Shown: positions 59,644-61,207 of the stretch, piece by piece
Layout: each line of letters begins with the position of its first letter
How positions within the stretch are numbered: the first letter of the stretch is position 1
Origin: Candidatus Paceibacter sp.
GTDB lineage: Bacteria; Patescibacteriota; Patescibacteriia; Magasanikbacterales; UBA922
Assembly (NCBI GenBank): GCA_020725175.1
Contig: DYFM01000002.1
Coordinates: forward strand, 36,880-100,879
Direction: 5' to 3'
Length of the DNA stretch: 64,000 bases
The notes under the pieces: model-generated
The model's database searches: none
The model's input: only the letters and a program-made list of their open reading frames with translations
Told to the model about the DNA's origin: nothing
Position numbers and translations under genes: made by a program

Positions 59644-60038
59644 ATAAAAAAGGCTTACGAGGCTTCCAATGCCTCCGATGTTTATTCATTGAAACTAGAA
59701 AATAGAAATTGGAAATTAGGGGTTGTTGATGGTGAGTGACGGATTCGGTTTTTAAGTCTACCAAGCCTTTCTAGCCCTTCCCGCATTTCAGGCTTCTCAA
59801 GCCTTTTCATTATAGCAGGTAGGGGGATTTGGTTCAATTCACCAAAAATAAACAATCTATGCCAGGTTGTATTTTGTATTGAGAAAACTTTATCCACAGC
59901 ACAGGGTGTGCTTGAAATTGACAAAGAGAGAGAGAGTTGGTAGTCTAGTGCGTTCCCGAAAAGCTCGGGGCCGCTGGCTACCCTTTCTCGTCGAGGGTGG
60001 TTTGGCGTGTTTAGCGAAGACGGGGCGGAGGCTGTGTA

Positions 60039-60749
60039 ATGGCAGTGACCGTTCGCATCTACGAGGGGTCTCATGGTATGAAGACCCCCGCCGGGATGCA
60101 GGCCCTGCTTGAGGAGTTCATCTCCCAGGCTGGGCTGGAGGGCGAGGTGACGGTGCACCTCGGAGAAAAAACCAAAGGACGCCCACACCGGCAGGGCGTC
60201 CAGGGGCTTTCGGTCGGCCCCTTGATCAACGGCCGCCACGTTGTTCTCACCGCCCAGCCGGGGGGGAATGATACGTGCCACAAAATCCGGCTGGTGGTGC
60301 CTCAGGGTTGGGGGGACCCTGAGGATGTGCGGGTGAAACTTCTTTCCTTCGCCGAGGGGGCGGTGGAGGAAGAGGAGGAGCGGGCGGAAGTCTTTCAGCC
60401 GGTGGAAACGCCGGTCGTGGACGACGACGAACTTACCTACCGTGGCCTCATCGAGGCCGCGGATAGTGAGCTCGAGGGGCTTGGTCAGCAGGCGGGGGAG
60501 CTGGCCGAGCGAGAGACGCGACTGGCGGAGGAGATTCGCCGACTGCAGGTGGAGCAGTTGGCGGTCACGCAACAGCTGCGGCAGCTCGAGACGAGACGCC
60601 GCGGTTTGCTGCGAGAGCGAGAGGAAGCGGAGGAGGCCATCCAGGCGGCCAAAGAGCGCAAGCTCGATGCTGCCCGGAAGGCCATTCGCCTCCTTCCCGA
60701 GGAACTCCGCAAGGAGCTCCTCCGTCAGTTGCAACGGGGCGAGATCTAG
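60039..60749 (+). CDS. hypothetical protein encoded in a high-GC island (coiled-coil C-terminus)
   Basis: 236 aa; the + frame reads like a real protein, whereas the overlapping minus-frame 378-aa ORF is Leu/Arg-rich antisense noise. Confidence 0.4.
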   Translation: MAVTVRIYEGSHGMKTPAGMQALLEEFISQAGLEGEVTVHLGEKTKGRPHRQGVQGLSVGPLINGRHVVLTAQPGGNDTCHKIRLVVPQGWGDPEDVRVKLLSFAEGAVEEEEERAEVFQPVETPVVDDDELTYRGLIEAADSELEGLGQQAGELAERETRLAEEIRRLQVEQLAVTQQLRQLETRRRGLLREREEAEEAIQAAKERKLDAARKAIRLLPEELRKELLRQLQRGEI

Positions 60750-61207
60750 TCCCGTTGCCTCCCCCCCCCAGGTTGAGTAGCTGACGCGACCACTCAACTT
60801 CACCCCACATTGCGTCATCGCTGATCTGTGCTCTCACCATGGGACCTTCAACCCACGGCACTGGTCGGCAAGAGAGGAGAAATAACCGGCGCGTCATCGG
60901 AGGAGGCGCAACAAGCCGGGGGCTCATCAATTCGATTTGTTCAATGTGAACGAGGAGAAGCGATGGGCCGGACAAAAAAGGACATCAGTTTTGCTGGTGT
61001 TTTTTTGTTTTAGGAAATATGGTATTCTTCTTGATATGTAACCTTTATATATGACTGAATTATCTTATAGTCTTTCAACGGGGGGGGTTAACATTTAATT
61101 CTAAAAAAATTGACATATTTCAAGATGTTGAGGAATTATCTGAGAAAGAAAAAGAGCAGAAAATTACTTCTCAAACAGGTGAGCGAGATGAAGAACTGAG
61201 GGATTTT

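Follow-up and report, generated by a model that had tools for sequence, protein, structure and literature searches.

Why should one kilobase of an otherwise low-GC genome be GC-rich, and what keeps it that way? The question is posed by a stretch of 64,000 nucleotides (nt) from contig DYFM01000002.1 (positions 36,880 to 100,879 of the forward strand; Candidatus Paceibacter sp., assembly GCA_020725175.1), which we analysed in full and refer to as the window: its positions 59947-60990 have a GC content of 62.7%, the rest of it 41.1%. We report here that this island consists of one gene with a transcription of its own, from a bacterium of the Patescibacteria (candidate phyla radiation), and that the gene codes for an uncharacterised protein that we name X. 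The GC excess of the X gene recurs in orthologs from deeply diverged genomes, and its transcript is folded more stably than synonymous shuffles of the same gene; selection acting on the RNA may be what keeps the excess in place.

Results

Composition and authenticity of the island

In 200-nt windows, GC content peaks at 0.69 within the island and averages 0.411 outside of it (standard deviation (sd) 0.052, maximum 0.56), which puts the island more than 5 sd off the window mean as the sole such segment in 64 kb. A preliminary description of this DNA had reported a GC jump over ~1.1 kb (~60% versus ~40%), and the windowed values confirm it. The same description had placed the jump between the upstream region of rpiB and 61000; the island does not directly adjoin rpiB, as ~275 nt of spacer with ordinary GC content (59644-59917) intervene between the two. 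The GC-rich tract sets in directly 3' of a promoter-like -10 hexamer (59941-59946), at an inferred transcription start (~59953) from which GC content runs at ~0.6 onward, and it ends with a terminator (60982-61011). The island thus equals one transcription unit.

Sharp GC borders are also what an assembly chimera would produce, in which a high-GC read has been joined into a low-GC contig, and the preliminary description had named this option. However, protein X and its surrounding DNA are found on 7 contigs from three independent sources (NCBI metagenome-assembled genome (MAG) GCA_020724605.1, JGI metagenome 3300029892 and Logan assembly SRR13164375) that agree over the junctions and the whole island, and orthologous GC-rich genes occupy the equivalent place in other genomes. 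The JGI copy is identical to the window over 6.7 kb and the NCBI MAG copy differs by a single C, located in a plus-strand poly-C tract (60761-60769) whose count is 8 in the NCBI MAG and 9 in both the window and the JGI contig; the tract may truly vary in length, or else the homopolymer was misread in sequencing. Because the island sequence recurs in three independent sources, a chimera can be dismissed as having next to no probability. One of the Logan contigs stops exactly at the poly-C tract.

Persistence and inheritance of the GC excess

A full HMMER scan (phmmer) of 1.84 billion cluster representatives identified 38 relatives of X at E<1e-3, the best at E = 7.5e-16 and five below 1e-10; the top relative is annotated as 'hypothetical protein [Candidatus Nomurabacteria bacterium]'. 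Loci were fetched for nine relatives, the remaining 28 representatives not being placed, and all nine lie in contigs of low to mid GC content (35-49% GC). Eight of them adjoin rpiB, ileS or a CBS gene. In the window and in seven distinct genomes the X gene occupies one and the same slot, with rpiB-rpe-trxB diverging from it on one side and tdk and/or ileS lying downstream on the other; the seven syntenic relatives with enough flank are P0003-P0007, P0012 and P0016 (loci L008, L011/L012, L013, L014, L015, L017 and L018). The ninth relative (P0034, locus L007) sits elsewhere in its genome and is not GC-rich. As for the window itself, its rpiB is nearest to MAGs labelled Candidatus Magasanikbacteria.

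In every syntenic genome, window included, the X gene lies 12-23 GC points above its surroundings. Over the eight syntenic copies its GC content is 0.57-0.65 compared with 0.36-0.49 for flanking genes, and the excess shows at synonymous sites (GC3 0.65-0.82 versus 0.29-0.58) and in amino-acid composition alike (GARP/FYMINK ratio 1.3-2.7 versus 0.64-1.0; R/(R+K) 0.49-0.80 versus 0.28-0.38), with borders that coincide with the gene. Over the 38 family representatives the amino-acid bias is graded continuously, the protein of the window being the most extreme.

Sequence identity across the eight syntenic genomes is 43-91% for rpiB, 31-58% for rpe and 23-40% for X. The closest pair, L011-L014, is the same for X, rpiB and rpe, the identity matrices of X and rpiB are correlated (Mantel rho 0.61, p = 0.006), and rpiB and X are set apart by an almost constant distance in four genomes (131-136 nt). 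As to signs of mobility, there are no repeats at the island borders, no integrase or transposase genes at the locus (the neighbours are rpiB and an orphan open reading frame (ORF)) and no DNA similarity of the island to phages or plasmids; X matches no PHROG or defence-system family, and 2.9 million viral contigs hold no relative of its protein motif. The distance to the closest tRNA gene exceeds 11 kb. From these comparisons, the X gene looks vertically inherited and fast-evolving.

This bears on another option of the preliminary description, namely recent horizontal acquisition from a high-GC donor whose composition has not yet ameliorated. Such an event would fit the atypical GC content and codon usage, as well as the lack of any close homolog in a word-indexed search of 5.8 billion proteins. 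It is, however, at odds with the orthologs in the equivalent slot of at least seven other genomes, which are all GC-rich even though rpe is only 31-58% identical, a divergence over which synonymous sites would have equilibrated many times; nor does it fit the residence of the nine fetched relatives in 35-49% GC contigs, eight of them beside rpiB/ileS neighbours of the Patescibacteria type. Given synteny, co-divergence with rpiB and the absence of mobility signs, recent transfer is not supported and, to our minds, very unlikely. Moreover, since synonymous sites are saturated and an unselected foreign composition would have decayed, GC-richness that persists in this way needs a maintaining force.

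Two further candidates were tried and rejected. A recently acquired genomic island is suggested by the deviating composition, but the X gene is not patchy at its site and lacks mobility signatures. A diversity-generating retroelement (DGR) target finds no gene repeat in the window (self-BLAST) and no reverse transcriptase among the neighbours; in addition, A (0.10) and T (0.13) are equally depleted at third positions of X, and with no depletion of A over T, adenine mutagenesis of the DGR type was rejected.

Folding of the X transcript

As the measure of structure we took the thermodynamic excess over synonymous shuffling, in which the protein, its codon usage and the dinucleotides across codon borders are all kept; with 23-40% protein identity, the orthologs preclude a reliable nucleotide alignment of the body. 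By this measure the X mRNA of the window is 46 kcal/mol more stable than its shuffles (z = -5.6), and the seven orthologs score z = -4.3, -2.9, -2.9, -2.0, -0.9, -0.3 and +0.7; host genes range from z = -1.2 to +2.0. Four genes on GC-rich contigs (z -0.8 to +1.7) show no excess, which indicates that the method is not biased by GC content as such. Eleven GC-rich genes unrelated to X have a median z of -2.65: eight are from metagenome loci, where they lie upstream of the same terminator motif that closes the X gene (z = -9.1, -4.4, -4.0, -3.6, -3.3, -2.7, -1.1 and -0.6), and the other three are GC-rich neighbours from L008 and L005. In a control set of nine genes, drawn from low-GC hosts and from GC-rich genomes, the median z is -0.24; pooled, the GC-rich genes are distinct from this set (Mann-Whitney p = 6e-4). 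In 8/8 genes the gain in free energy over shuffles on the sense strand exceeds that on the antisense strand (sign test p = 0.004), and such a sense-strand excess is expected from selection on the transcript, in which G.U pairs are usable, rather than from DNA palindromes alone. Perfect hairpins with stems of at least 6 bp number 7 (distinct) in the window copy versus 3.3 expected.

A different force might be local GC-biased mutation or gene conversion, for instance through allelic recombination at a fast-evolving locus, with folding as a mere side effect. The shift that is seen at every codon position as well as in the amino-acid composition would agree with it, as would the fast evolution of X and the homopolymer whose length differs between assemblies. 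Yet conversion tracts would be expected to blur the borders, which are sharp at the ends of the gene or transcript and leave rpiB, ~130 nt away in orthologs, unaffected. Biased conversion also fails to predict a folding excess over shuffles that keep composition, codon usage and dinucleotides, one that is larger on the sense strand and missing from GC-rich genes of GC-rich contigs. We therefore regard it as a distinctly unlikely source of the GC excess.

Coding evidence

The plus-strand ORF 60039-60749 displays strict three-base periodicity (GC1/GC2/GC3 = 0.78/0.40/0.77) that spans ~60050 to 60725 and ceases at the stop codon. With this periodicity, a GGAGG ahead of the start, 38 relatives and a confident AlphaFold model, the plausible protein that the preliminary description had seen in this ORF gains firm support, and a comparison of codon usage of the kind it had proposed shows X to be atypical (GC3 0.77 versus 0.44). 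On the minus strand an ORF of 378 aa (59682-60818) overlaps the X gene in register with the plus frame; it remains open solely owing to the lack of TTA, CTA and TCA among the sense codons of that frame. It has no Pfam match, and in 6/10 copies examined (5/8 of the syntenic ones) the antisense frame is interrupted by 1-7 stops (L008, L014, L015, L016, L017 and L018). We therefore rejected an antisense overlapping gene and agree with the earlier view of this ORF as antisense noise, a by-product of GC-rich codon usage on the plus strand.

Could the island instead be a large, GC-rich, structured non-coding RNA, with ORFs as chance products of a low stop frequency? Open frames on both strands and a very stable predicted fold of the plus strand (-553 kcal/mol) would be in keeping with such an RNA, and GC-rich islands in AT-rich genomes are a classical sign of RNA genes, as Klein, Misulovin and Eddy are said to have reported in 2002. 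Against it stand the strict codon periodicity with its low GC2, the Shine-Dalgarno sequence at correct spacing and a protein family that has conserved residues and is confidently modelled. Nor did an Rfam scan of the entire window match anything at gathering thresholds; up to E = 10 in 59600-61300, it gave terminator-like matches at chance level only. A non-coding RNA is hence highly improbable and, as the sole function of the island, already contradicted, though the island may have a second role at the RNA level. Of the GC-rich structured RNA put forward in the preliminary description, what stands is that the transcript is structured beyond the needs of protein and codons; what falls is its non-coding nature, as the tract is coding and belongs to no Rfam family.

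Protein X and its family

Searching 5.8 billion proteins by indexed words with the ORF or with the family alignment returned the query itself only, the candidate list of the alignment search being dominated by coiled-coil words. Matches in Pfam, PHROGs, NCBIfam, PADLOC and PDB sequence searches with X were confined to generic coiled coils (segments of SMC, Rad50 and EzrA). AlphaFold, run on a small alignment, models X with confidence (pLDDT 92.7 for the whole protein; 93.7 for the N-domain, pTM 0.85) in the order strand, helix, four strands, helix, linker, long helix, short helix. Residues 1-117 (60039-60389) are predicted to form a compact alpha/beta domain that contains the motif QPGxNDT in an invariant loop (residues 73-79), followed by a flexible acidic linker of low confidence (residues 118-129), a single long, Arg-rich coiled-coil helix (residues 130-218, pLDDT above 94) and a short C-terminal helix (residues 221-232). 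Thus, the coiled-coil C-part of the preliminary description reappears in the model, and its Gly/Pro-rich N-part gives way to a confidently modelled domain. In the family, the N-domain measures ~110 residues with conserved G19, G47 and P74-G75-x-N77, and its members have a long helical C-terminal part in common.

Foldseek comparisons of the whole model and of the N-domain with the PDB and viral structures gave nothing below E = 0.01 (best E-value 0.035; TM-scores 0.34 or lower). A head-stalk fold like that of XRCC4/PAXX was considered and rejected, since head similarity is not significant (PAXX matches at E = 0.17-0.57, TM-score about 0.2). Judging from these searches, X is an uncharacterised and apparently lineage-restricted family whose N-domain lacks a Pfam or PDB relative, and the model suggests that it is most likely a parallel coiled-coil dimer with two globular heads, which may serve as a scaffold or adaptor. 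The family is new, and its N-domain, modelled at high confidence though without detectable relatives, makes it a target for structure determination and partner finding. Longer members of the family (alignment A2, columns ~400-600) carry between N-domain and coiled coil a middle segment, 'GYLE...Y.LTEKG', which to the eye resembles a winged helix-turn-helix and which Pfam does not recognise.

Anatomy of the transcription unit

The unit, all on the plus strand, is headed by a putative promoter with a perfect -35 hexamer TTGACA (59918-59923), a 17-nt spacer and an extended -10 element TGgTAGTCT (59938-59946), both read from the sequence, as is the probable transcription start (~59953). A consensus promoter scan did not list this promoter, its -10 hexamer being weak; a TTGACA box is also present 60-95 nt 5' of the start codon in orthologs L008, L011, L013, L014, L017 and L018. 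The 5' untranslated region (5'UTR; 59953-60038, ~86 nt, 61.6% GC) may form hairpins at 59955-59969 and 59978-60000, although its fold taken alone is not significant (z = -0.4), and it holds the Shine-Dalgarno sequence GGAGG (60027-60031) 7 nt ahead of the ATG. In orthologs L011, L013 and L014 a small GC-rich hairpin lies right before the Shine-Dalgarno sequence. The coding sequence of X (60039-60749, 236 aa) rests on codon periodicity, relatives, the AlphaFold model and synteny.

A perfect 8-bp hairpin, GCAACGGG-N12-CCCGTTGC, spans the stop codon (60731-60758). The 3'UTR (60750-60982, 233 nt, 57.5% GC) folds with z = -2.1 and contains a hairpin GTTGAGT-N13-ACTCAAC (60772-60798), in line with the structured non-coding tract and hairpin that had been described 3' of the stop. 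After this hairpin come a C-rich CACCCCAC (60801-60808) and a long penultimate hairpin that we call P1, GGGCTCATC ... GATGGGCC (60920-60969); hairpins of variable sequence occupy the position of P1 before an A-tract in orthologs L013, L015, L016 and L017 and in many metagenome loci. An A-rich linker, GGACAAAAAAGG, then leads into the intrinsic terminator (together 60970-61011, the terminator itself 60982-61011), which consists of a 7-bp stem ACATCAG/CTGGTGT with a conserved U.G pair, a 5-nt loop and T7. As in Rho-independent terminators, a stem-loop followed by a U-tract closes the unit; the consensus scan missed it, the stem having fewer than 3 G-C pairs.

An integron attC reading of 60772-60798 was rejected. 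In attC sites the order is R''...R' and the length at least ~57 nt; here the ends GTTRRRY...RYYYAAC are reversed in order and 27 nt are too short, and no integron integrase is found in the neighbourhood of the island. Upstream of the unit, the start-to-start distance of rpiB and X is ~395 nt in the window versus 131-136 nt in four orthologs. The spacer 59644-59917 harbours, in the likely rpiB leader, a 25-nt inverted repeat (59648-59672 / 59783-59807) whose fold is not significant (z = -0.14).

A terminator shared with stable-RNA genes

Written as CATCA-N3-9-TGRTG-YKTTTT, the terminator motif has a single copy in the 64-kb window, where chance would give 0.01, and exactly one in each of L011-L017, always right after X, and is conserved at the nucleotide level though the X proteins are ~30% identical. 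When public metagenome contigs were scanned for the exact pattern, 75 more loci came up, two of which carry X and eleven of which have the rpiB/ileS/tdk/CBS neighbourhood; 2.9 million viral contigs gave no match. In at least 12 loci the motif directly closes a gene for a stable RNA, nine times a tmRNA (eight called by Rfam RF00023, one by ARAGORN) and three times a tRNA. Because it closes tmRNA and tRNA genes, we take the motif to be a native terminator of the host and not a mark of foreign DNA. The terminators of these tmRNA (L020, L027, L032, L036, L045, L057, L072, L080, L093) and tRNA loci (L023, L028, L034) have the form CATCA-loop-TGGTG with the conserved U.G pair, flanked by an A-tract on the 5' side and a T-tract on the 3' side.

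Upstream of the motif, GC-richness is again common: in 14/57 loci the preceding 350 nt exceed the locus median by more than 10 GC points (base rate 1.9%, p = 3e-12). The ORFs in these GC-rich stretches, membrane and secreted proteins among them, have no relation to X or to one another. We considered a tail motif, L..LP.E.R..vL, as common to the C-termini of such unrelated GC-rich proteins and rejected it, as the tail HMM had no significant matches. Many motif loci have a hairpin ahead of the A-tract, and in 12/59 non-redundant loci, versus 1.2% expected, the 60 nt that precede the terminator contain a CCCCACC-type motif. Often it is the loop of a GCCG...CGGC hairpin that holds this motif, and in some cases a GGAGG-like sequence comes before it; loci of this type include L024, L025, L037, L041, L052, L060 and L090, and the counterpart in the window is 60801-60808. 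Judged by sequence, this layout resembles a 3'UTR-derived small RNA with a seed similar to an anti-Shine-Dalgarno.

Tentatively, X may belong to a Patescibacteria gene class in which unrelated proteins are encoded by GC-rich, hyper-structured transcripts of low-GC genomes with a common 3' module, made up of a hairpin (often with CCCCACC in its loop), an A-tract and the CATCA/TGGTG terminator as in tmRNA and tRNA genes. That this class exists and marks a mechanism at the RNA level is possible rather than probable in our estimate; the mechanism could be extreme mRNA longevity, a second RNA function or a 3'UTR-derived small RNA.

Neighbouring genes

Next to the island, the window carries an orphan gene of 275 aa (61208-62035) with 33% GC and a coiled-coil C-terminus, for which the search of 5.8 billion proteins returned the query only. 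A promoter-like TTGACA-N18-AATTAT at 61110-61139 favours TTG at 61208 as its start; with 7 G in place of the poly-G(8) at 61080-61087, an ATG at 61051 would give 327 aa that read into the 275-aa ORF. Further on, a gene pair for a HicB-like antitoxin and a HicA toxin directly follows the thymidine kinase gene (~62663-63152; L001 5625-6114).

Among related loci, L011 (3311-3517) and L013 (3084-3332) have after X a conserved protein of 68-82 aa with motifs 'PV.FF' and 'C.CRFC.TQ' that is absent from the window. L008, a MAG labelled Nomurabacteria, holds two GC-rich genes after X (7071-8261 and 8372-8995) with AT-rich spacers between; their GC content is 0.58-0.66 and ~0.50 versus 0.45, and neither is in a Pfam family. 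The idea that these two or the 275-aa ORF are paralogs or split-off parts of X gained no support from BLASTP or hhalign and was dropped. In the Magasanikbacteria MAG locus L005 (5390-5810), an unrelated ORF of 112 aa with GC ~0.6 versus 0.37 lies between rpsO and rpiB and comes with its own ribosome-binding site and terminator (shuffle z = -2.2).

Discussion

Our findings that the GC excess of X persists across diverged genomes, and that the transcript folds beyond what protein, codon usage and dinucleotides impose, can be brought together in a model in which selection acts on the RNA. On this view, selection would favour a transcript that is rich in GC and extensively paired, and would thereby preserve the GC excess; in a low-GC cell, such a transcript might be expected to resist AU-directed decay and may also slow its own translation. 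We hold it to be evenly balanced whether RNA-level selection of this kind keeps the X transcript GC-rich and structured, the composition then not being a leftover of transfer.

Several of our own results weigh against this model. The folding excess is uneven in that 3/8 X genes show none (z = +0.7, -0.3 and -0.9), and the enrichment of perfect hairpins is limited to the window copy. For most orthologs the end of the GC-rich tract falls at the stop codon or up to ~80 nt 3' of it, not at the terminator, and the difference between sense and antisense strands could in part reflect an excess of G over C rather than selection. Selection on RNA structure is also not obviously in need of a shift in amino acids (GC1 0.78), and a shift at all sites looks more like mutational or conversion pressure. 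Likewise, fast protein evolution is usually not seen with abundant, stably expressed proteins. Finally, two loci hold a different, unrelated GC-rich gene at the X slot, a gene for 325 aa in L047 (5500-6477) and one for 825 aa with an ECF sigma factor-like start in L068 (reverse strand, 522-2999); both end in the same terminator and neither product has a detectable relation to X, which indicates that the content of the locus is exchanged over long times.

Such exchange is the core of another scenario, in which the rpiB-tdk/ileS slot is a replacement hot spot, refilled with moron-like units of promoter, gene and terminator from a GC-richer pool, and in which GC-richness reflects a pool circulating among these bacteria instead of selection in place. 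The X unit is autonomous in having its own promoter and terminator, and unrelated GC-rich genes are seen at the slot in L005, L047 and L068 as are two extra genes in L008. That diverse, unrelated GC-rich genes share the terminator module, and that some members of the X family are not GC-rich and lie elsewhere (L007, for example), can also be reconciled with a pool. Refilling, on the other hand, is hard to square with a divergence of X that co-varies with that of rpiB and with an rpiB-X spacer held at 131-136 nt in four genomes. Integrase genes, flanking repeats and matches in viral contigs, phages or plasmids are all missing, and the terminator, which closes tmRNA and tRNA genes, is native to the host. 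An origin from a pool leaves the folding excess over synonymous shuffles unexplained. Slot replacement therefore seems unlikely to us, albeit worth keeping in mind.

The GC anomaly at this locus is inherited and maintained across deeply diverged genomes. Atypical GC content is a standard heuristic for foreign DNA, and X is a counter-example that would mislead island finders as well as contamination and chimera filters on metagenome-assembled genomes. What is new here is an inherited, maintained compositional island that is coupled to excess mRNA structure and found in an uncharacterised protein family. A search of full-text literature, with incomplete coverage and hence weak as evidence, gave no account, in these bacteria, of the X family, of a terminator of this kind or of genes that stay GC-rich. 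If selection does act at the RNA level, ultra-small and mostly uncultivated bacteria would use base composition and mRNA folding as a gene-specific control, in a layer tied to a terminator common to stable RNAs.

Comparison with known systems

How does X relate to systems already described? With acquired genomic islets the X island shares a sharp break in composition, atypical codon usage and a lineage-restricted, unannotated gene. Unlike such islets, X is syntenic and co-diverges with its neighbour, its anomaly persists rather than decays, and integrase, flanking repeats and an adjoining tRNA gene are lacking. X is also opposite to the usual orphan genes, since lineage-specific orphans are, as Daubin and Ochman reportedly found in 2004, usually AT-richer than the host genome, and X is GC-richer. 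Prophage morons come close in that the X unit has a sigma-70-type promoter and an intrinsic terminator of its own together with a deviant composition; in contrast to morons, X resides among housekeeping genes, not in a prophage, and is apparently vertical. A moron proper was rejected, as there is no match to phage DNA, no PHROG family and no match in 2.9 million viral contigs.

At the protein level, X is like XRCC4/PAXX and the DivIVA/GpsB scaffolds in having a small globular N-terminal head and a long helix expected to dimerise, although it shows no significant similarity to them in sequence or fold. At the RNA level, small RNAs such as RsaE/RoxS have C-rich seed regions, and the C-rich hairpin loop before the terminator in loci related to X is reminiscent of these. 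GC-rich RNA genes and dual-function mRNAs provide a further parallel, X being GC-rich relative to its genome, folded beyond shuffles and equipped with structured UTRs; it differs from GC-rich RNA genes in that it is predicted to be translated into a conserved protein and has no Rfam family, its RNA-level function being a putative one. With stable RNA genes, finally, X has its 3' end in common, which is that of tmRNA and tRNA genes.

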